DNA of 63,686 bases, counting the filler, from Bonamia ostreae (lineage: Eukaryota), in NCBI GenBank assembly GCA_040357525.1. It is 54 parts of 54 records of this genome, joined end to end, with 100 filler letters (N's around TTAATTAATTAA, not from the genome) between each part and the next. Parts side by side here need not be neighbours in the genome. Positions count along the whole stretch, not along the records: positions 2,379 to 3,466 come from JBDODL010002753.1; 53 more parts are not named here. One strand, written 5' to 3'. The first letter of the stretch is position 1; each line of letters opens with the position of its first letter. A model generated the notes under the pieces. That model had not been told where the DNA came from and did no database searches. It saw nothing but the letters and a program-made list of their open reading frames with translations. Positions 2,379 to 42,623 of the stretch are shown here, piece after piece. The translations under genes were made by a program, and so were the position numbers.

Positions 2379-3466
2379 AAATAAAGTACACTAATCTTCC
2401 TTTAGGAACAAAAATTCTCAGCCGTTCGGCCTCAAGACGATTTTTGCTTGCTCTTTTTATTTTTTTAATGCCGCGTTCCAATTCCTTCCTGCGCAAAACA
2501 CGCAATCGATTGATCACAACTTTGCTGAAACCATATTTTTCTATCAATCTCATCAACTCTCGATCTCGCAATCGACAAAAATTATAAGCGACCAACGGAG
2601 ACTCTAAAAGCACTCCAATTTTCGCAAAATAATCTGTTTGCAAATCGTAGAATGTCTTCGATTAAAATATTGTTATGTACACATTCAAAAAAATTGTTTG
2701 TAATGTACATATTCAACAAAATTGTAACATTTTTGTAATGTACATATTCAACAATTAAGTTAAAAAAAAACTTCATCTTTAACACCAAGAGCACTTAGTA
2801 ACATAACGGATTGAAGAGATAGATAAGTCAAATGAAACGGAGTTGAATAATTAACGATTCCGAGAAAATTCTTGTCATGTTTTCCTTCGAAAACGTTAAA
2901 CTTGAGCATCGATTCGCGAAACTGGATTTTGTTATGAAGACTTTTCTTGAGCAACAAAATCCCTTTGAAGCCAAGAAAACGTACTTGGATCACGGATGGC
3001 ATCGTTTCAACGATTTTTTTGTTGTCTTCTAAGATTTTGCACGCTTTGGAGATTATGTCTGCTGAGACGAATCCGCATCCGTCTGTGAAGTTGAAACCGT
3101 TCGATTTGATGTCCGGAATCTTTTCCCATTGAAGATGTTCTTTTAATTTTTTCGTTTTTGAATTAAGCGATTTTCAAATTTGGAAAACCGATTTCGAATC
3201 CAATTCTCAGAGACGAAAACAGCAAACCGATTCTTTTCGATCGTTTCTGTGTGTCTGGAATTAGTGAGAAATCTCCCAATTGGTGGATCATCTTAAAAAT
3301 CGTTTCCGGCGTGCCTCTGTAGAAGAAACATGCTTCGTTTCTTGAAGGAGACGATCCTGCAAAATTGTAAGCGCCGTCTTTTTTGTTAAAAAATATTGTA
3401 ACAACAAAAACAGTTAAAGCAAAAAATTTTGTTGGCAACAACAAAAATACCAAAAATCGAATTGAA
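2379..3466 (-). CDS. Cellular RNA-dependent RNA polymerase (RNAi-type RdRP), internal fragment
   Basis: The spliced translation contains LGDFSLIPDTQKRSKRIGLLFS, IPDIKSNGFNFTDGCGFVS, PSVIQVRFLGFKGIL, FRESMLKF, MLLSALGV and RIFVPKGRL. These are the ordered motifs of the eukaryotic RdRP family. Three GT-AG introns, including 2656-2771. Confidence 0.9.
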
Positions 3467-4468: not shown

Positions 4469-6288
4469 ACACAGAAAATTTTTGTTTACATTAAGTTGTT
4501 GTTTTGTGTGCACAACTCGTGAAGAATAAGCTTAACGAGTCAGTAGTTGGGACTAAGTGCGCATTCTTGAATGAATGGGTTTATCCGAGCTGATATCAAA
4601 ACGGAGAAGAAGATCTATCCGAACTCCTAATTTGACTGGGGTTGCCATAAAAGGNNNNNNNNNNNNNNNNNNNNNNNNNNNNNNNNNNNNNNNNNNNNTT
4701 AATTAATTAANNNNNNNNNNNNNNNNNNNNNNNNNNNNNNNNNNNNNNNNNNNNTCACCTTTCATTGTATGATCCTTTATTTTGTAACGAATGGATATTG
4801 GCTTAGTGGGTGATTGACGTAACTATCCACAGTCCTTATTGCAATTTAAGGATATGGTTATTTGTTAAAACACATTGTAGGATGCTCCCATCTGGTCAAG
4901 ATTAATATCAAGACTATTAGAGGTCAAAAATGGGCACGAGTTTCTAATGTTTCTGTACTTTACAGAAATTCCGTTGGTAAATTGACACAGGGAAATGTAC
5001 GACGTAAAATGTTCCTTCATCCAGTGTTAAGCATTTAGAATTGAGAGTTCCGTGAAAAGTCCCACCGTTGACACGATGGAGAACTTAAATTGATACTACC
5101 TTGAGCATACATAGTTCATGGGTCTAATAAAGTATTTTAATATTAATGAAAAATTCAGGACTCAGATGCACTTTGAAATAAATAAAAAATAAATGAAATT
5201 AATTTCTATATGAGCAAACAATATGCACTGATTGTGAACCAGGTGAAGGCATCTAGCATATGGAAAGTACAAATAAATGATTGATTATTTTATTGTGATG
5301 ACAAGGATTATTCTGACCCAAAAGCAGAATTTGGGGACCTCAGGAATAAGATAAAATATATCTTTTTCAAGCTTTATATTTCATTTATCTTTTTTTGGTC
5401 ATATATTTTCTTGCCTCGCGGAATGTTCAGCTTTTGATGTTTTGAAAAAAAAAACCATGAGTTGATAATATTAGTTGTGTACTAGAAGTTAGATATGAAA
5501 ACATCCATAAAATAAATAAAAAAGAGCTTCCATTTAAGTTTGCCAAAAATCATTACAGGAAAAATAATATTTACAAAAAAAAAAAGAAGTTCAGCGGTGA
5601 AATTGACAGATTGGAAATGGGACTATTAAAATTGGAAAAGTGAAATTGGAAAACAAAAACCGGAGAGAGAAAAGGTGAGGAAGAAAAAGAAAATAACGAG
5701 CAAAGCGATTAAAAAAATCAGAAAGGAAATTTGAAATTTTACCTGTCAGAGCAGAATGTTATGCTGCTAAGATATTAGACTAAAACTAAAACTAAAACGT
5801 CATCGTCATTTCGGATTTCAAGCATTTTGATTGAGTATCACTNNNNNNNNNNNNNNNNNNNNNNNNNNNNNNNNNNNNNNNNNNNNTTAATTAATTAANN
5901 NNNNNNNNNNNNNNNNNNNNNNNNNNNNNNNNNNNNNNNNNNTAAGTTTCATTGGATATATAAAAGAAAAGTAACTCAAACATATTTCATACCGAGTTTG
6001 TTAGAGCCAACTTTCCATTAAATGTACACAAAATTTTCCTTTTTTCCCCTGATTAAATACAAATATGAGAAGGAAACACAGACCAATGGAAATGCCCATA
6101 GGTTATTAACATTTTGTACTTGAAAAAGTTAATTAAAATTCATAAGTCTTTAAAAAGTCAATACAATAATTGATCAACATCGAAGTCTGTAGTAAGTCCA
6201 CTCTTACACACTCCACCAACTCACTCAGTGCGTCCAACTCTCTTCGAAGGGGGGAGGTACCAGGGGCCACACGGGTGAATCCATCACA

Positions 6289-6660
6289 CAATACGGTCGA
6301 ATACTCGTGAGAATTGGTGGCGGCGGATCCGTCACACGATACGGGTAGACACTCCCGTGATTGGGCCGAATACCCGTGAGAATTGGTGGCGGCGGATCCG
6401 TCACACGATACGAGTAGACACTCCGGTGATTGGACCGAATACCCGTGAGAATTGGTGGCTGTGGATCCGGCCTACGATACGGCTAGACACTCTGATGATT
6501 GGGCCGAATTGGCGTGATAATTGGTGGTGGCGGTGGAACCGTCCCACGATACGGCTAGACACTCTAAAGATGATTGGGACGACTTGGCGTGAGAATTGGT
6601 GGTAGCGGTGGATCCGTCCCACGATACAGCAAGATACTCGGGCGATTGGGCCGAATACCT
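6289..6660. repeat. GC-rich tandem minisatellite, about 5.3 units of 69-75 bp
   Basis: Units start near 6289, 6357, 6426, 6495 and 6570. Core GATTGGGCCGAATACCCGTGAGAATTGGTGGCGGCGGATCCGTCACACGATAC. No unique spacers. Confidence 0.9.
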
Positions 6661-7532
6661 TATAGTGGTGTCTGTCTTAATGGCGATAATTTGGCCGGTG
6701 ATGGGGACACACTTGTGAAACAAGATGGCGTTCCCCCTCTGTCATCCTCTTTTCCAGCTTCTCAAATCTTGGACGATTACTCTCTCTAAAAATAAATTAA
6801 TACAAAAAAAAATACAATTTTTAAATGCAGATTTTAATAAAGTTTAAATTGTTAGTATAAATGGAAAAAAATAATTGTATAAAATGGAAATTAAAGTCAT
6901 AACTTGTGTTACAAGCTATTAAAAAGAACAATAATCAACGTTACCTAAGATTTGTAAACGTGGTATTATCATCATCCTTCTTCCTATGCTGCGTTAATCT
7001 TCTGTAGATAAACAAATTTGTACATCACCANNNNNNNNNNNNNNNNNNNNNNNNNNNNNNNNNNNNNNNNNNNNTTAATTAATTAANNNNNNNNNNNNNN
7101 NNNNNNNNNNNNNNNNNNNNNNNNNNNNNNTATCTACAAACCGTTAATTAATAAATGTGATAATTGGATTTTTTGTCGATCAAATTCAGTCCGTTTACAA
7201 AATGGCTAATAGCTGTTGTCAATCTCCTCACTCGAGGTCGTATTTGACGTCCCACATAATGGCGCGTCAAATATCGAAAGTAAATGTGTATATTGCAAGA
7301 TTCGAATTTCGTCGCGTTAATACTCGAAATTTATGCAAAATATTTCATTTAAATCACATGTAAAGTCATTTTAGGCATGTAAAAATTGATTTTGTTAACA
7401 AATTTAAAAAAGTGTAGTAACATGCGATGTGTCCTTTAAGGAAATACCTCTTTGTTCAAATAATCACTTATGATCTTCATCTCTTCCTATTTCCCTCTCA
7501 ATTGGCTTTATCAGACTGATTCATTTCTACAG

Positions 7533-14318: not shown

Positions 14319-15302
14319 TTCCAGCGACGAGTACATTGTTTTTATTTAAAGAAAGAGTATTTATGATATTTTGCGGACGAGTTAAATTGCGTTGAAATTG
14401 CCCCTGAGGCAATTTCCAATCTTTAATGGCATCTGCGGCACCGCTTATAAAAGCATTTTCAGTTTGGTGTATCAAAACGTCTCTAATGCTTTTTTTGTGG
14501 TGCGTCAATGTCTAATTATTAAATTCTCAAAACTGTTATCGATCTCCCATTTCTCAAATCCCAAAAACGAATCTGATCTGTTAAATTTATTAAACAGTGT
14601 GATCGTGGCTGCCTGTTATTACTTGTGGTTCGTATTCTTGAGTTTGAACGCTTGCCACAGTTGATTTGTGGCCACTTAAAACATGAATCTGCGCCTATTA
14701 TTTTTACATAACTAAAAGCTTCAAAAATATTAATTTTTCAATGATTTTAATTATTTGTTTATTGTTGTAACGACATGTTTATTAAAAATTTTTTGTTTAA
14801 AAAATCCGCATATAAAAAATTTACAAAATATATCAAACAGAAAGCTTTAAATACCGAAAATTTTAAAATGTCAAAAACTTTTGTTCGGACATCCCAGACT
14901 CTCCCACAAGAATCTCTGCCAACAGACACCAAAACGTCGAGCGTCGGGTGAAGAGACAATCCGTAGACACCACTCAAATGGCCGTGGTACTTTCTAATAA
15001 CTTTGTTCTGTTCAAAATCCCAACAACGAACAGATTTGTCATCTCCGCACGAAAAAATGTACGGATGTCTGTCGCTCACACAAATTCCTCTGACTCCGGT
15101 CGTGTGGCCAGTCAAAGTCAATTTGAGTACTCCGCTTGCCAAATCCCAACTGTTTTTGATTTTATCAGTAACAAAAAATTACATTTTGATCGTGCGATCG
15201 TTGCTACCTGTAACAAACCATTCGTTTGCGTAATCAACTGCAACTGCTCGCACCCAGCCAAAATGTCCAGATATTACTCTTTTTAGTTTCCAAGGCGCGT
15301 GC
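14319..15302 (-). CDS. PLRG1: Pleiotropic regulator 1 / Prp46 WD40 splicing factor, partial
   Basis: [18 protein letters not shown]...[21 protein letters not shown]...[11 protein letters not shown]...GSHDHTIRFWDL. Introns 15150-15182 (33 nt), one of about 185 nt, 14573-14595 (23 nt) and 14512-14533 (22 nt) restore the frame. Confidence 0.95.
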
Positions 15303-17805: not shown

Positions 17806-18479
17806 TTTTATCAATTTTATCGATTTTTTGTTTGTTTTTTGTCTTTTTATCAATTTTATCTTTTTTCTTGCGATTTTCTTTAATTGTGAATTTTGAAGGA
17901 TCCCAAATTAATTTTCTGCGACTTTCGTACTCTTCATCACTTTGACCTTCTTGAGCAGATGACGAATTTTCTTCATTTTTAAATTTTCGTGTTGGCCGTC
18001 GATACTTATTTTAACAAAAATTCAAAATTTTCTTCAAAAATAATATAAAAAGACGCCATTTTATATAAAACACGCAAAACAACCAAATTTCAAAAATACT
18101 TTTTAAGCGCTCATTTTCCAAACCTTTTTTACATGATCACACCGCAATATTCTCCCATTTATTTTTGTTCCATTAAAATTATCAACAGCTAAGACAGTAC
18201 TCCTTTGATCTTCAAAAGCAACAAAAGCGTATCCAAGAGAATTCCCCTTTTCTTTGTCTTTGACGAGATTGCAATCGACGATTTCCCCGAATTGGCTAAA
18301 AATGCAAATAATGTCGCCCTCTGAAAATTGATAGTCAATTCCACTTACAAAGACATAAGAACTGTTTTTGTAAGCCGCGTGCCATGAAGCTGATTCCGGT
18401 GTGTTAAGCCGTAATTCCTTTTTGTTGATTTTTTCTATTTCTTTTATAATGTTCTTTAAATTAATTTGTGATTTACCAT
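17806..18479 (-). CDS. RBMX2: RBMX2/Snu17/Ist3 RRM protein (RES complex), 3' partial
   Basis: SWHAAYKNSSYVFV...EGDIICIFSQFGEIVD...FEDQRSTVLAVDNFNG...RILRCDHV. A 23-nt intron follows the ATG directly (18454-18476); second intron 18005-18123. Confidence 0.95.
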
Positions 18480-18629
18480 TTTCGTGTTTGTAGTTTAACG
18501 TTTTTTATATAATTGTAAATTTCTTTTTGTTATTAATGGCGATTTTGAAATATTGTGAATAGCAGTTTTAAATTTATTATGTAAAATAAAACGAAAAAGA
18601 AAATTTGAAAAATATTTACAAAAAATCTT

Positions 18630-19905: not shown

Positions 19906-20411
19906 GATAAAACAAAAAAATTGAAAAGAAAAGGAAACATAAAAAAGAATCATTAAAAAATAAACAGAACAGATTTTGATAAAATTTAGAGATCAAATAT
20001 TAGATTTGAAAGATATGGCAAGATAAAGAAGCAAAGAAATCTTCTTATAGAAGCATCTTACCACGAGCGAAAACGNNNNNNNNNNNNNNNNNNNNNNNNN
20101 NNNNNNNNNNNNNNNNNNNTTAATTAATTAANNNNNNNNNNNNNNNNNNNNNNNNNNNNNNNNNNNNNNNNNNNNGATTTTTGTGTTTGCAATAATGTTT
20201 ATTTATTGATAACGCAATCGGTTCTTACTTTATTTAGGACGGATAAACAACTTTTTGTCTTTGCACAAAATTGCAATTTAAACAAAAAATCACAACGATA
20301 TCCAAAGAATTGGTTCGTTAAACATGACAAGACGACAATTTTTGCATTTTTGGCACTTACAAAAACGCAATTTTGCAAAATTTCAAATATACAATTAAAG
20401 CTAAACAAAAC

Positions 20412-21185
20412 CCCGCCGATAATGGACACAGTTCTAACTCCCAACGGTTTCGCAAAACGCTCTGTTTCTCGCTCGATCTGTTCGGCGAGTTCCCGCGACG
20501 GCGCCAAAATGACCGCGTACGGCCCGTCCGCCGAGTTTTGCGGTGTCAGCGGCGGCAACTTCAAAATGTATTCCAACATCGGAATCACAAACGCGCATGT
20601 CTTCCCCGAACCCGTTTCCGCGATCCCCACTATGTCGCGGCGAGCGAGCCCGATCGGGATCGCCATCCGTTGGACCGGCGTCGGATCGCGATACCGCGCG
20701 CGCCGCAGTTCTTCTTTGATGCGCTTGTCCAGAGCGCTTTCTTCCCAATAGCGAATCGGCGTGAACTTGCCGATTCCGCGAGTGCTGATTCCAAAGTCTT
20801 CTCTGAAAATCCGCCAGTCGCGGTCTGTCATGTCTTCGAGCTTCTTGTGTTTCCAAAGATGGTGCGCCGACTTGCGGGCGAGTCTTTTTTCTTTTAAGCG
20901 GCGGATGCGCTCCTCTTTGCGCTCGATTATGCGAGCCATCCTCCGCGGCTCGCGGGCTTTGTGTTTGCGGAGCATCTCGAGGAACGCGCTGTTGCGCGTT
21001 TTCTGGGCCTCGCGATCGACGCCGGCGACGAAGCCGCGGCCGAAAGCAAGCGAGACGTCTGCTTTTTTGGCGTAGAGCTCGTTCGGGTCGACGGAGGTGT
21101 CCTCGGTGGGTTCCCAGTCAAAGTTGAATCTTTGTCTGTGGTCGAGAGGAATCACCCGTTTCTCTCTCTTCTTTCTGCCCAAGTA
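20412..21185 (-). CDS. DDX23: U5 snRNP DEAD-box helicase Prp28/DDX23, internal exon
   Basis: FNFDWEPTEDTS, MTDRDWRIFREDFGI, PTPVQRMAIPIGL, DIVGIAETGSGKT and DGPYAVILAPSRELAEQI. The exon is bounded by AG (21186) and GT (20411). Confidence 0.96.
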
Positions 21186-21359
21186 CTTATTTGTCGCAAA
21201 ATTATTTTTGGACTAAAGATTTTTGGGGTTAATGTTTTTATTTCTTTGTTTAAAGAAATNNNNNNNNNNNNNNNNNNNNNNNNNNNNNNNNNNNNNNNNN
21301 NNNTTAATTAATTAANNNNNNNNNNNNNNNNNNNNNNNNNNNNNNNNNNNNNNNNNNNN

Positions 21360-22680: not shown

Positions 22681-22746
22681 CTAAAAATTGGGACTAATGT
22701 TTATTTGGAAAAATATCTTAAAAAATTGCGAAAAATGGCTAAAAAC

Positions 22747-23560
22747 CACGAAGCGATGGCTATTTTTTTCAGCCAAACTGTCGCCTTTAGATCGCCTTAT
22801 TTTAATTTTCCCGTTTTGCTGCAGTCTTTGAATATTCAGATAACTTCTCCCGACATCCCTTCTCCTCATTCCCGAATTCGCGCAAAGCTCTTTAATCGTT
22901 CTCGGAACGCCGTCTAATTTACACGCGATGTAGGAGCACGCAACAATCAGGTTGTCTTTGTTTCTTCCTTTAACTTCACCAAGATCGAAGAGCTGCTTAA
23001 AAATCGATTGTGTTATCACCTTTAGAACAACATTATATTGTCATTCGATAAACTTTTACAGATCCGGAAAGCTTTAGTTTATAGTTGATTTCGTCGATCG
23101 TTTTGTAATGGTTGAAAAGTTGTTGCGATTTGCCCGACTAGTTGATTAATTTTACAAGCAAAATTTGAATCGCTATAAGCGAACTATATTTAGTTTGAAA
23201 GTCCGTTCCGTTTAATGGATTAAAAACAGATGCTCTGATTTGGTTTCTGGTCAAAATGTGGTTGTTGTTGGCTCCTTTGCCAATTTGGGTCGAACCGACT
23301 TCCTCTTCTTCCAAAAGAGGGTGAGAAGGCCCGCCGACTCTGTTCATATCGACTCCTTTGTCATTGGCTAATAAATCGCAAAAATTACATTCCGAAAAAG
23401 TTCTCCATTCGGTGTCGTCTGATATAATCCTGTGCCCCAATACAAGTCCACAGGAAGTGCACACGTTTTGGCCTTCCCTCGTATCTTTAACAACGACCGA
23501 CTGTACGCATTCAGGGCAAGTCGGTTGAATGGGCTCAACGTATTTGCTAAACTTTGGCAT
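22747..23560 (-). CDS. GTF2B: Transcription initiation factor IIB, 3' partial
   Basis: Zinc ribbon CPEC...CTSCGLVL, B-reader EWRTFS...NRVGGP and cyclin fold KGRNKDNLIVACSYIACKLDGVPRTIKEL. Three introns, including 23368-23388 (21 nt). Confidence 0.95.
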
Positions 23561-25261
23561 AAGAATAAACTAATTCGATTTTTAAAAGCTAAATTTTTTT
23601 GGTTATATAGCAAAAGCTTATACAAACNNNNNNNNNNNNNNNNNNNNNNNNNNNNNNNNNNNNNNNNNNNNTTAATTAATTAANNNNNNNNNNNNNNNNN
23701 NNNNNNNNNNNNNNNNNNNNNNNNNNNGCCATGGCTCGGGGCGACCTATACATGATATACTGAGATACACACACACAAGGATATATTTAACTTTATCGAT
23801 AAACTTCTGTGATTTGTATCTACTACTAATAGAAAATGGCTTTTTTGTATTTGTCATCATCCTATAGTTCAAAATGCTGTTTTAAGGATTATAATTTGTC
23901 CATTGTTTCTTCCAACACGTATAAAAATAAAATAAAAAATATTACACTTGGCATCTCCACAAACCACGGATAAAGACCAATGACAATATCCCCAGTGTGT
24001 TCCTAGAGACCTACTACCGTTTTGCATGGTGTCACATGCATGGACTATTCTAAATTACTAATATGGTGACAGTGCTATTGTTGATGCAAGTGAAATAAGT
24101 TAAATGGTGCGCGGTGAGCAGGTTGTTTAGGACCTAAACATTTTTCAAAGGTTTGGTGAAGACACATATCATTGTTAGTTCAAAGTGGAGGAGAGGCGGA
24201 TGAGATGACTCCACAACTGTATAAAATGTTTGACAGGTTTTATAGTCCTAAACCATATACAGCTTAATTTGTCTTTGATTTCTTAAAATTTTGGAAGGGC
24301 AATGTACACTCTTCAGTACATGGGTTCAATTGATAACATTGAGCCTAGAAGCAATACCTACTGCTATAATGGTGGTTGAGGCACTCAATATATTTTCAAA
24401 ATTTGTAGACAACGGAATCGGAACTTTGTTAGAATGATTTGATGCAATTACTTCAAGCATTGTAAATACCTTAAGAATTTGCTAGACCTCACTGGTTTTC
24501 AACTTAGATACACATCAGCGAGTCCAAGGCCGAATTCTTTCACAGAACATTTTAGAATTGACCCCAAAATGTATTTCTAACTCATGAATATTCTTTTTTA
24601 GTTTAATAGAATTGGGCCTGCAAGAAAATAGAGATAATTTTTTGATAAAGACACCTTCGTTTTTGGGAATCACAGACGCAGATTTAGTCCTATCATTCTA
24701 CTCATAACGGGTGTGATGTCTAAGTCTCAGGCTGGCTTTAAAAGGGTGAATAAACGATCGTTTACTTTTCCAATAAAAGACACAGTGTAGTTCAATGTTC
24801 ATTGCATTATTNNNNNNNNNNNNNNNNNNNNNNNNNNNNNNNNNNNNNNNNNNNNTTAATTAATTAANNNNNNNNNNNNNNNNNNNNNNNNNNNNNNNNN
24901 NNNNNNNNNNNTTTAATTCCATGTTACGTTATGAATGTATGACTGAAAATTTCCGAAAGCATATCCTACGCTAGATCGACTCAATGAAAATTGGATGTTC
25001 GCAGTTTGTATGGCGTGATGTAGTGCTCTTAAATCATTTGACATATGTGTTCACCTCTTTTCCCGTTATAAGATTTGATTAAGTATGCATTGATTTTAAG
25101 ATTTACAAAGCTATCGATCCTGAGTTTATAGTGAAAAAGAATGTAATTAGCCTAATATACCGATATGTAAACCACTAAAGGATACTCACCAGTTATATAA
25201 GTAGAAGAATTGATAGGAAAATAGCACATGTTATGTTAATAAGTCGGTCAGATATATAAAG

Positions 25262-28462: not shown

Positions 28463-29419
28463 GAGAACATCGTCCATGATCTGAAACGACAGCCCCAAAT
28501 TTTTCCCGTATCGAAAAGCGTTTTCGACCGTCTCATCGTCGCAGCCCTTCAAAACAGCGACGGATTTGCAAGAATTGGCGATCAGAGAAGCCGTTTTCAG
28601 AAAGTTTTTGTGACAATAAGTGTTGAGCACTGTCTCCAAATCAAAGCCGTCACCTATTTCTATCCGAATCAGTTCGCCGTTCACCAGATCTTCGATCGAA
28701 CTCGAAATCAGTTTTATGACTTCGTTGTCGCCCAAAATCGCCAAACTTATTGAAGCTTTGGCCAGAAAGTAGTCTCCGCCGAGAATGGCTACTTTGTTGC
28801 CGTATCGTTTTCTCACCGACTCTCCGCCGCGACGAGAATCCGCTTCATCGATCACGTCGTCGTGGAGGATGGAACCGGTGTGCACCAATTCGACTATTTC
28901 GGAGAGCCGCTTTTGTCTCTCGAAAACGCCGCGATAGTCCAATCCGTTCGTGTCGGCGAGGTCGGCCGTCCGCGCGACTTTTTCGGATCGGGTCGGAGAG
29001 CAGTTCTGGAGCGCTTTCGATAGCAACAGAGTGATGCTCGGACGCAGTTTTTTGCCTGACCGCTCTACGATGTGGCGCATTATCGCAGACAAAGACGGGT
29101 TTTGCCCGGAAACGATTTTGCTTTGGTTGGCGAAGAAAACGTGAAGTTGTGAGTGAACTCGTTGAGACTGGCTTTGATCAAATGGAATGGGTTTGAGTTG
29201 ATGTCTAGAGCGTCCATCTTCGAGGCCAGGTTTCTGGCTTTGGCTCTGTTGATCGCTTTAATGTAATTTTCGGGGGAAATCGCTTTTTTGGAAAGGCTTT
29301 TTAGAGTGGATAATCCAAAGTTCTCGGCGAGCATCATCAAGTTTTTAAAGCTAAATTTGGTCTGCTCGAATTTTTACGTTCTTTGTATAAAAGCTGTTTT
29401 GGGCGGTTTGGATTTTTGT
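28463..29419 (-). CDS. COQ1: Long-chain trans-polyprenyl diphosphate synthase (Coq1/PDSS1), partial
   Basis: SGKKLRP, ELVHTGSILHDDVID (FARM), RRG, GNKVAILGGDYFLAKAS, KTASLIANSC and FQIMDDVL (SARM). Introns 29121-29140 (20 nt) and 29351-29377 (27 nt). Confidence 0.92.
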
Positions 29420-29645
29420 CTAAATTGAAAGTTTTATTTTCGCGGACAAAATTTTATTTTATTTTCTATTTTAGTCGAAAAAATGTTTTATGTTTAGAGG
29501 ACAAAATTTTATTTTATTTTCTATTTTAGTCGAAAAAATGTTTTTNNNNNNNNNNNNNNNNNNNNNNNNNNNNNNNNNNNNNNNNNNNNTTAATTAATTA
29601 ANNNNNNNNNNNNNNNNNNNNNNNNNNNNNNNNNNNNNNNNNNNN

Positions 29646-37910: not shown

Positions 37911-38989
37911 TCGCAGCGAAAAGTTGGAAATGCCGAAAATGTAAACTTTACCTTCCAAATCCAGCAAAACAGCGTGATTGTTGCCCGAAGAAATGTCCAC
38001 TATCTTCGGACTTTTGGGAATTTTTAGTTTATATGGAATATTCTGCTCTTTCACGATTTTGTTCTTTTCCAAATGATGTCCCACTCTGCCGCTACTGCTT
38101 TTGAAGGAACCCCACGAAAAAACGGTCCCGTCTTCGAGGAGAGCGACCATATGTTCGTCTCCCACAGAAATTTTAGTGGTTTTGGGAGGTTTGTTTTTAA
38201 AGCTTTTTTCGAAGCTTACTTTTTTTGGAAAATATTCCAAATCGGTGTTTTTTGATGTGTCCCTTCCCAATACTCCGCCGTCGTTCTAATAAAATTTTAA
38301 AAATTCTAAAAATTCTAAAAATGGCTTTTTGCGAAACAAAATTTTTACACAATTCTTAAATTTTTATACAATTCTTAAATGATATGAAATTAGAGTCTGT
38401 TCATTAAAATATTCAAAAGTTGGCAATATGAACAAAATTGTTAATAAAGCGAGTTCCAAACAGCTTTAAATTAACATAAATTGCTGCAATAAATGTCCGA
38501 TTACGTTGACAGATAAAAATTGTTGCAATATAAAAATGGACGTTTTTTAAGACTTTTATACAATTGGCATATAATATTTAAAGCTCGATTGATAATGTTG
38601 CGAGCAATCTTAAATAGAAACGGGTCCCCAAGTCCAGACGTCTCCGTCGGAATCGATGGCGGCCATGCAAAAAGATCCGCACGCGACAGACACAAAATGG
38701 ATTCTCAGCGAATCTTTTTGCAAAAATGGTCTTTTGACGTCGGCTTCGCCATTTGGACCTAATCCGAGCGTTCCAAATGAGTTGTTTCCAAAAACAAATA
38801 AACCAGTCTTCCCATTTTCAATTTTTTCTAGACTTTTGGCAAAATTGGATTTAAATTCATTTTTCTCGACCGTTTTTTCCTTCTTCGATTCAATATTTTC
38901 GTCGAAAAAGCCAAAAGTAAATTTTGACGGATTTGTCTTTTCGCCGAAAATATTAGTTTTCGCAGAATTTTTGTTGTTTTCTGTTGTTT
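37911..38989 (-). CDS. RCC1: RCC1 (RanGEF) beta-propeller, internal fragment
   Basis: LFVFGNNSFGTLGLG...VACGSFC...GDVWTWGP|NDGGVLGR...ISVGDEHMVALLEDGTVFSWGSFK...ISSGNNH. Intron 38286-38621. Confidence 0.85.
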
Positions 38990-40334: not shown

Positions 40335-40845
40335 CTACTCCTTTCGCAGCCCCGTTTGGGCCCCTAAAAACAACGGGCACTTTTGTTGCGCCTCCTGTCA
40401 TGTAGCAAGCTTTCGCAGCCGAATTAACGATCTGATCGATTGCCTGTAAACTGAAATTGAACGACATAAATTCGCAGATCGGCCGTAATCCGTTCATCGC
40501 TGCTCCCTTTGTTATGAAGACAATATTTTAAACGCAATCGATCCAATCGTTTTGGCAAAAATAAAAAACGACAGAAATTCCTGTGAACCCCATTTCCGTA
40601 ATTGGAGTGTCGAGCACTCTTTTGTCGGAGAAGCGGTCCAAAAGACCTTGAGTGATCTTATACGCGCCATTGTAGTCGGCGACTTCTTCGCCAATAACGA
40701 ACACATTTTCGTCTCGTTCCATTTCTTCGCGAATAGAGCTGTTTAAAGCTGCACGTACTGTCATTTCTTTAGAGCTGAAATATCGTGAAAATCCGAATTT
40801 CGTTTTGTTGTTTTTCAGCATCTTTTTCGTTAAATTTTTGAGCAT
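40335..40845 (-). CDS. PDHB: Pyruvate dehydrogenase E1 beta subunit, mitochondrial, 3' partial
   Basis: Basic presequence, then MTVRAALN...[17 protein letters not shown]...[25 protein letters not shown]...FRGPNGAA. Intron 40507-40569. Confidence 0.96.
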
Positions 40846-42623
40846 TTTCGTTTATTTGTATTTTCTTAAAAAATTTTTTAAGAACTTTTATATAAAAAAT
40901 TATTTAAATCGACCGACGAAAAAATTTGTCAGAAGAATGGCAAAGTGGATTAATTAAACCATTATATATATCTTTTTTATGGAAGAAACGCTTTTATAAA
41001 CTAAAAATGGCTTGCAGCAATTTAAAGACTTTTGATTAAATTTTTGCTGTTCTTTTGTAATTTTTTCCTGGACAAATGTTCATTAAAAGAACCGCTTTAC
41101 TTTGACAAATTGATCTGTTGCGAAGAATTTTGGTCTCGTCATTTTCTCATATAAACTGAGAATATCTACACATTTTAGAAGTACAACTTCCAATTTTTAA
41201 CTTAAAAAACTATTCAAATATCGATCAACAAAATTTGCAGAAAAAATATTCGAACGTAAAGGACTTTTTGCAAAAAACTTATTCCAAATCATTTACAGTT
41301 TTTGAGTGACCGCGTCGAGAATGGAAACCGCCGACTCGCAAGTGTNNNNNNNNNNNNNNNNNNNNNNNNNNNNNNNNNNNNNNNNNNNNTTAATTAATTA
41401 ANNNNNNNNNNNNNNNNNNNNNNNNNNNNNNNNNNNNNNNNNNNNTGTTTACCAGTTCGTCTTAATTAATGAAAGCCATATCGCAAACAGATTGGAAAGT
41501 AAATGTACTATATAAGATCAATTGAACATACATAACGTACACAATAATGCCCCTGTGAAAGGTGAAATACCCTGGTAAATGTGAAGGCCAGTAGAAAGTG
41601 GACCACCATCTCCTCCCATTTTTTGTGAATAATTTGGTTTAAATTGATTCGTCTGTTAAACACTGCATGTGCAAAACTACTATTTGGTCTTGGGTGAAGG
41701 CAAAATTTATATCAAATCACCTAAACGATTCATTTTAGGAAGTTTGGATTGACTACCACATGTTCCTCAACGTTTTCGTGAAAGTTTGAATAGACCGCCT
41801 CTGAATTGTTCTATACAACTGATGTTGTGTATTGATAGTTTAACGATGAATCATGGCGCTAGAAAATCTTTAAGATGCATAGAGAATATATTTTAAGATG
41901 TACAGAAGTTTCTTCTTCAATATAGGTAACTGATAGTTTAGCTTTTATGAATGATTTATTGAGAATGTGAGGAAAAAAATAAAGCCCCAATATTCCTTCT
42001 GAATCTACCATCTACTGTTCTTTTGACAAATTTGGGCGCGTACTGCTAACCAACTATTATATGCGAGCGAGAAATAGTAGTTGACGAATTTTTCATCGGT
42101 CATTCGGGAATAAAAAATGACGCGTATAATAATTGGTTCACAGCATTTATCATGGGGAAATGTAACCTTATTAGATTTTCCAACGAAGAGTGAGAAAGTT
42201 TGACCTCCCTACCATTAAAACATTGTTTTGTTCTCTTTTAAACTACACAAATTGACGTAAGTTGTTAAATGAGAGGATAATGTGATTGATAGTTTGCTTT
42301 GTAATTTTCAGCTTTCATCTTTAAAATCAATGACTTACGGATATAAACTTTATACACAATGTACAACAAAATTCAAACTTATCTTTACTTATTCGGTATG
42401 TTTAATGCATTTATATTAGAGGTACATGTATACTTGTAGGTTTTGTAAAAAAGTGATTGAATCATACAAATGCAATGATAGTATTTTCTGAAATGTTGAG
42501 AGTTGATGAGGACAAAAAACAAGNNNNNNNNNNNNNNNNNNNNNNNNNNNNNNNNNNNNNNNNNNNNTTAATTAATTAANNNNNNNNNNNNNNNNNNNNN
42601 NNNNNNNNNNNNNNNNNNNNNNN

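Follow-up and report, generated by a model that had tools for sequence, protein, structure and literature searches.

Bonamia ostreae is an unculturable parasite which has devastated flat-oyster stocks, and we know of no genetic tools for it. Whether such an organism owns a cellular RdRP, and exploits it to amplify RNA silencing, is the question raised by a short contig located at positions 2379-3466 of the window, i.e. the whole stretch of 63,686 nt analysed here. An RdRP hints at a small-RNA pathway, which may keep transposons or viruses of the parasite in check, and might permit knock-down by double-stranded RNA in B. ostreae. The fragment is a real, expressed and constrained internal part of a cellular RdRP gene, and the gene most probably is of the parasite. 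Since the evidence is a fragment of 274 codons, it is to be taken as a lead, and as no demonstration of a pathway. The gene is new to the literature searched, and has been deposited only as a partial hypothetical protein; it belongs to a known and widespread subgroup of RdRPs, functionally unstudied.

The window (1-63686) consists of some 55 contigs, each 1,074-1,089 nt long, arranged in descending size order and separated by runs of N around TTAATTAATTAA; internal gaps of 10 N occur in some of the contigs. As contigs adjoin by concatenation, neighbours in the window are not genomic neighbours.

Gene structure, expression and family

The region 2379-3466 is a single whole contig of 1,088 nt (GC 0.347), flanked at both ends by N linkers. 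Three stop-free stretches are found on its minus strand, and the RdRP gene resides on this strand. By motif scan, the RdRP motif order is kept along the minus strand, with YNFAGSS at 3349-3369, KRSKRIGLLFS at 3214-3246, FTDGCG at 3072-3089, PSVIQVRFLGFKG at 2961-2999, LLSALGVKDE at 2772-2801 and RIFVPKGRL at 2392-2418. Ordered motifs had been claimed in an earlier, sequence-only reading of this DNA, and they are not due to chance. Taken alone, the middle ORF (2760-3173), which holds exon B (see below), matches the eukaryotic RdRP family PF05183 of Pfam with an E value of 3.5e-29 and 102 bits (cut-off 23.8); neither of the two outer ORFs, each compared alone with Pfam, gave an RdRP match. P0001, a protein of 246 aa, matches positions 106-347 of the 582 of the same profile with an E value of 4.7e-39 and 135 bits (cut-off 23.8), a result which answers positively the profile check proposed along with the earlier reading. 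P0001 is the NCBI entry 'hypothetical protein MHBO_003926, partial [Bonamia ostreae]', recorded for a contig likewise of 1,088 nt, and is the sole near-identical protein found in collections of 5.8 and 1.8 billion sequences.

Among solved structures, Arabidopsis and maize RDR2 (PDB 7eu0, 7roz, 7w82 and 7w84) are matched significantly by the Bonamia fragment, both by profile (positions 106-347) and by sequence, E values for RDR2-type chains ranging from 8e-15 to 2e-14. QDE-1 gave no match at E<=10 in the sequence search of solved structures. The order of the motifs YxFxG, KxxxRxGxxFS, F[ST]DGxG, PSxxQxRxxGxKG and LLSxLGVxDE is shared with RDR2. In turn, Bonamia carries RIGLLFS and FTDGCG, whereas RMGQLFS and FSDGIG are of the RDR2 type, and the fragment, unlike RDR2, corresponds to the middle of the RdRP domain only, with no DxDGD visible. 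The ESM Atlas model of P0001 could be aligned to RdRP clusters with TM values, by query, from 0.84 to 0.58. A viral RdRP, deemed unlikely from the beginning, is ruled out because PF05183 is a cellular family and the gene is interrupted by spliceosomal introns. We are highly confident that the fragment is a eukaryotic double-psi beta-barrel RdRP (PF05183) of the KRxKRIGLLFS/FTDGCG subgroup and, jointly, that it originates from the parasite.

The gene model, all on the minus strand, starts with the 3' part of an intron (3380-3466) of 87 nt or more, truncated where the contig stops; its limit is set by a loose end of the transcript described below at 3379 (+/- 2 nt), and an AT-rich tail, ...AACAAAAA, precedes the AG. 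Exon A (3189-3379), identified by transcript, open frame and motifs, encodes YNFAGSS and KRSKRIGLLFS, and is followed by an intron of 49 nt (3140-3188; GTTTTC...AAAAG, GC 0.22). Exon B (2772-3139), identified by transcript and Pfam, encodes FTDGCG, PSVIQVRFLGFKG and LLSALGVKDE, and is the core of the Pfam match. The second complete intron (2656-2771) measures 116 nt (GTTTTT...TCGAAG, GC 0.20). Exon C (2390-2655), identified by transcript and motifs, ends with RIFVPKGRL and two bases of the next codon. The first 11 nt (GTACTTTATTT) of the next intron are found at 2379-2389, next to the other loose end of the transcript at 2390, the remainder being cut by the contig end, and the catalytic exon is expected beyond this intron start, off the contig. 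The three exons sum to 825 nt and 274 open codons, with a GC of 0.39 versus 0.20-0.22 for the introns. The GT..AG introns of the sequence-only reading are real, with GTTTTC and GTTTTT as donors; of the GTTT/GTAT-AG style described there, the GTAT variant is found at no donor of this gene, the next intron beginning with GTACTT. Inspection by eye revealed, in the intron at 2656-2771, a direct repeat (TTGTTGAATATGTACATTACAAA...) of about 35 nt with imperfect copies.

Splicing is documented by a transcript contig of 2,515 nt (word depth 187) from run X3, which is coded organism B, and for which the RNA type ('RNA?') is a guess. The transcript covers 2390-2655, 2772-3139 and 3189-3379, and omits both 2656-2771 (116 nt) and 3140-3188 (49 nt), the CT..AC borders of which on the plus strand read GT..AG on the gene strand. 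Such a pattern is expected of a spliced mRNA, the only alternative, still formally conceivable, being a processed DNA copy. The transcript departs from the window contig at 3379, where the contig has the context of an AG acceptor, and at 2390, where it has a GTAC donor; it extends 984 nt upstream and 706 nt downstream of the contig. Hand translation of the loose ends (30 nt each), in frame, gives NGIIIIESNA ahead of DGAYNF, and V-YGVCDPFGL behind ...KGRL. Both ends fit homologous proteins, such as ...DGIQVVNSNCDGHYRFAG in Nonionella, and RVVYGVADPSGML and ...YGVADPSGML in P0002. Transcript and window differ at five positions (3075, 3301, 3310, 3313, 3325), all of them synonymous third positions, which argues for purifying selection. 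The gene is thus expressed, spliced and under constraint, because one transcript skips both introns and the differences are synonymous in five cases out of five. An identical 205-nt piece of exon C was found in a second RNA library, X6, labelled as a mollusc metagenome. Run X2 shares 0.89 of the sampled words, yet only short pieces were obtained on 3406-3466, and the whole contig is not independently confirmed by this run. The start methionine annotated at 3291 is internal. The frame upstream of it (3274-3379) is open and homologous (KKDGAYNFAGSS...), and the transcript runs through it as well; the deposited model therefore lacks part of the 5' end.

Relatives and origin of the gene

According to the genome paper (PMC11069148), the B. 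ostreae assembly consists of 12.24 Mb in 9,705 scaffolds, with an N50 of 1,417 bp and a GC of 33.3%; the sample sequenced was a mixture of host and parasite, and contamination was subsequently recognised in 4.7% of the gene models. For these reasons, the origin of the gene had to be tested.

HMMER comparison with 1.84 billion representatives returned 674 relatives at E<=1e-3, and the best of them, P0001 excepted, are 45-51% identical in exon B. Over the full fragment the best relative is P0008 from Diversispora eburnea, a member of Glomeromycota (39.0% identity over 249 aa). Beside it stands P0023 (EukProt EP01083_P152814; 37.8% over 246 aa) from Nonionella stella, a foraminifer, which belongs to Rhizaria as Bonamia does. 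The alignment with the foraminiferal protein (38% identity in round figures over the 246 aa, hence 62% divergence) contains 6 gapped positions, and RdRP is the only domain detected in the 696 aa of P0023. The two proteins share YL....VMLLS in place of the usual LNxQ..LLS. This variant has been found only in P0001, Nonionella and P0054, LN(K/R)Q occurring in 127 of 159 sequences, and such small characters are consistent with a rhizarian link. With P0054 the identity reaches 76% over 46 aa, and the match stops at the same exon boundary, GVKDE.

The homologue of the bivalve Mya arenaria (P0025) is 32.0% identical to the fragment over 253 aa, and a host origin is unlikely because the identity of the bivalve protein is so low. 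Identity to Mya over the RdRP region amounts to 48-58% for the named bivalves among the matches listed (Mercenaria, Dreissena, three Mytilus). No oyster-named protein occurs among the matches listed, 120 of the 423 retrieved in a search seeded with the Mya protein. The GC of the contig, 0.35, does not discriminate between parasite and other sources. Run X10 gave 0 matches among 9,211,280 records, a result which counts neither for nor against a host origin.

In a quick maximum likelihood tree of 74 rows and 241 columns, Bonamia groups with Nonionella and with P0122, which has a long branch, at an SH-aLRT of 80, a weakly supported grouping on long branches. The group falls on the 28-row side of a split labelled 97*, opposite to a 46-row clade which includes canonical RdRPs and the helicase-fused proteins of animals. 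The AU test did not reject the tree in which Bonamia is forced with the 22-row Mya/Ephydatia clade (bivalve and sponge; p 0.32), and only marginally disfavoured that in which it is forced with the Mya subclade of three (p 0.071). In phylogeny, one of the checks originally envisaged, the fragment joins a rhizarian protein in the free tree with weak support, and a placement with the bivalve-holding clade is not formally rejected. The view of the sequence-only reading that the gene is unlikely to be host is sustained by the low identity to Mya and by the rhizarian found among the best relatives, and gains nothing significant from the AU tests.

Helicase-fused relatives and the catalytic loop

The KRIGLLFS and FTDGCG variants had suggested a subgroup of RdRPs, some of them fused to SF1 helicases. 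The subgroup exists. Among 151 homologues, 98 carry FTDGCG, and 62 a motif of the RIGLL type; KRSKRIGLLFS and FTDGCG in the Bonamia fragment conform to the signature K[RK]x[KA]RIGLL[FL]S plus FTDGCG. In the 30 long relatives scanned, the RdRP domain was always found (30/30), accompanied by the C-terminal AAA_11/AAA_12 domains of an Upf1-like SF1 helicase in 15, and by an N-terminal AAA_28 domain in 10. A search seeded with the Mya protein identified 423 such long proteins at E<=1e-10. The subgroup had been associated with fungi. Fungi are included, but it is not specifically fungal, since named members have been found in Glomeromycota and Ascomycota as well as in sponges, cnidarians, bivalves, a crinoid, a diatom and a foraminifer. 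It may correspond to the RRP-3 clade of fungi.

The signature motifs of Mya arenaria LOC128209691, Ephydatia muelleri EMCRGX_G018482 and Diversispora eburnea CAG8483906 are as in Bonamia, and these AAA_28-RdRP-SF1 fusions rank among the best matches, with 42-51% identity in exon B. In the tree, Bonamia stands outside the clade of the Mya and Ephydatia fusions, without decisive support. The 984 nt of mRNA upstream of exon A would leave room for an AAA_28 domain. Elsewhere in the 63,686-nt window, no match to a helicase or to a second RdRP was found. The literature search returned no functional study of the RdRP-helicase architecture; an RdRP with AAA_12 is the subject of a side remark on Branchiostoma in one article (PMC6396948).

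In 86 homologues the DxDGD loop is located 245-303 aa (median 271.5) after F[ST]DGxG, and it is present in 83 of the 88 homologues which reach far enough. The contig ends 193 aa after FTDGCG, and DxDGD is therefore expected 52-110 aa past the last codon. The predicted site would fall well inside the 706-nt downstream stretch of the transcript. Recovery of the downstream exon had been proposed as a check, and failed. The exon is off the contig, and residues 478-696 of Nonionella P0023, used as a query against shorter proteins, retrieved 12 short RdRP pieces out of 111 candidates, none of them named Bonamia; tblastn of 9 homologues against the 63,686-nt window found matches on the 2379-3466 contig only.

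P0167 (148 aa, NCBI, contig of 1,112 nt), which carries DLDGD, is not claimed as the catalytic piece of Bonamia, as its residue composition seems to call for more G+C in the codons than is found in the Bonamia exons. Two unnamed Logan records, P0002 and P0003, are RdRP fragments of 464-481 aa which both end with ...FPVQGLYSN, just before the expected DxDGD. The common end suggests that an intron, or the end of a contig, is found at the same place in their source organism.

Possible roles in RNA silencing

As predicted from the RdRP family, the full protein would copy single-stranded RNA into double-stranded RNA, or make short antisense RNAs, and the products would feed a silencing process guided by small RNAs and directed at transposons, viruses or aberrant transcripts. 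That the Bonamia enzyme may act in an Argonaute-dependent pathway is, by analogy with the family, a proposal to which we give even chances. Partner proteins were sought in the window. The Pfam scan covered 48 of the 65 ORFs with a length of 90 aa or more, the three ORFs of the RdRP and 14 alternative frames in overlap being set aside, and no Piwi, PAZ or RNase III domain was found in these 48. RNAi, Argonaute, Dicer and RdRP are unmentioned in the main texts of the Bonamia genome paper (PMC11069148) and of the transcriptome paper, and Argonaute, Piwi, Dicer and PF05183 gave no match in four supplementary files of the former. No mention of a Bonamia RdRP, Argonaute or Dicer emerged from the literature search, where articles naming both 'Bonamia' and 'Argonaute' concern molluscs, to judge from their listing.

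RNAi in Rhizaria is called largely unexplored in a 2026 study on Plasmodiophora brassicae (PMC13547706), the only rhizarian parasite with characterised RNAi. According to the same source, P. brassicae owns two AGOs and one Drosha-like enzyme, and lacks both Dicer and RdRP. RNAi thus operates there in the reported absence of an RdRP, whereas Bonamia has an RdRP gene, and an expressed RdRP in Ascetosporea would therefore show that the pathway differs within Rhizaria.

Other readings of the locus must be set against that of a silencing enzyme of the parasite. The mixed sample and the 4.7% of contaminant models make it legitimate to ask whether the contig derives from the oyster, as the host, or belongs to a different eukaryote present in the sample (PMC11069148), but the near-identical protein is a Bonamia entry only, and the next best matches drop to 45-51% identity. 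Bivalves such as Mya, Mercenaria, Dreissena and Mytilus do own an RdRP-helicase family; yet Mya is 32% identical to the fragment over 253 aa, whereas bivalves are 48-58% identical to Mya, and none of the matches listed (120 of 423) is oyster-named. Similarly, the AU tests allow a place with the bivalve-holding clade (p 0.32 and 0.071), but in the free tree the fragment is found outside the 46-row clade (97*) with the animal proteins, and a rhizarian is among its best relatives. The introns of 49 and 116 nt, and the word depth of 187 which the transcript reaches in a small run labelled with another organism, also speak against a foreign source, which we judge highly improbable. Very unlikely, in turn, is that we deal with an RdRP copy which is decaying or devoid of catalysis, either a pseudogene or a source of truncated products devoid of DxDGD. 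A precedent is provided by rdr4 of Cryphonectria parasitica, a family member with transcripts reported to lack DxDGD. The visible part of the Bonamia gene is the non-catalytic part only, the SQLR-type motif after YxFxG is degenerate (SSPSRNE), and LSLQ replaces the usual LN(K/R)Q. A decayed copy is, however, hard to reconcile with 274 open codons over three exons, precise splicing, strain differences synonymous in all five cases, and an mRNA in which the conserved YGVxDPxG motif follows in frame; moreover, nearly all the homologues which reach far enough (83/88) have DxDGD.

A real RdRP of Bonamia might also not amplify canonical RNAi, and work as an Argonaute- and Dicer-independent RdRP-helicase module, for example in RNA surveillance, or be the leftover of a lost pathway. 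The closest family is rich in Upf1-like SF1 helicase (15/30) and AAA_28 (10/30) domains, with 423 such long proteins, and the fungal RRP-3 clade is described as having no known function. On the 'B.ostr. losses' sheet of Additional file 10 of the genome paper, GO:0031047, 'gene silencing by RNA', stands at 2/328 versus 2/12517 (PMC11069148). Both of the orthogroups with this term, OG0000093 and OG0000457, are on the sheet, and both therefore had a loss event on the Bonamia branch. An ALE 'loss', however, denotes one gene copy lost at a frequency >0.3, and is not proof of the absence of a family (PMC11069148). In addition, the assembly is very incomplete, with its N50 of 1,417 bp and 65.9% of a conserved gene set present, as given in the same paper, and all the established functions of eukaryotic RdRPs are reported to be tied to small-RNA pathways (PMC6396948). 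A role outside canonical RNAi is in our opinion possible, if unlikely. A bolder and rather improbable version is that Bonamia, and perhaps Rhizaria ancestrally, given the link to Nonionella, keeps an expressed member of the AAA_28-RdRP-SF1-helicase type, used without Argonaute and Dicer as a self-contained machine which would copy and unwind RNA for surveillance or defence. If this were true, RdRPs would have a function outside RNAi. The explanation which we favour overall, with some reserve, is that of a genuine, transcribed and spliced cellular RdRP gene of B. ostreae, holding the role of its family in RNA silencing.

Other contigs of the window deserve mention. The GC of most of them ranges from 0.27 to 0.40. 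The contigs at 20176-21259 (GC 0.49), which carries a fragment of a DDX23-like DEAD-box helicase, and at 28463-29545 (GC 0.44), which carries a fragment of a polyprenyl synthetase, may come from another organism in the sample. Long overlapping open frames of a repeated unit (e.g. ...IRHTIRVDTPVIGPNTRENWW...) are found on both strands of the contig at 5943-7030 (GC 0.41), where 6133-6741 is a tandem repeat without a Pfam match. Fragments of housekeeping genes occur in other contigs (14762-15178, 18106-18504, 22684-23569, 37911-38987 and 40531-40851), and include WD40, RRM, TFIIB, RCC1 repeats and the pyrimidine-binding domain of transketolase. In the TFIIB fragment, the zinc ribbon and the cyclin repeat are encoded by two ORFs.
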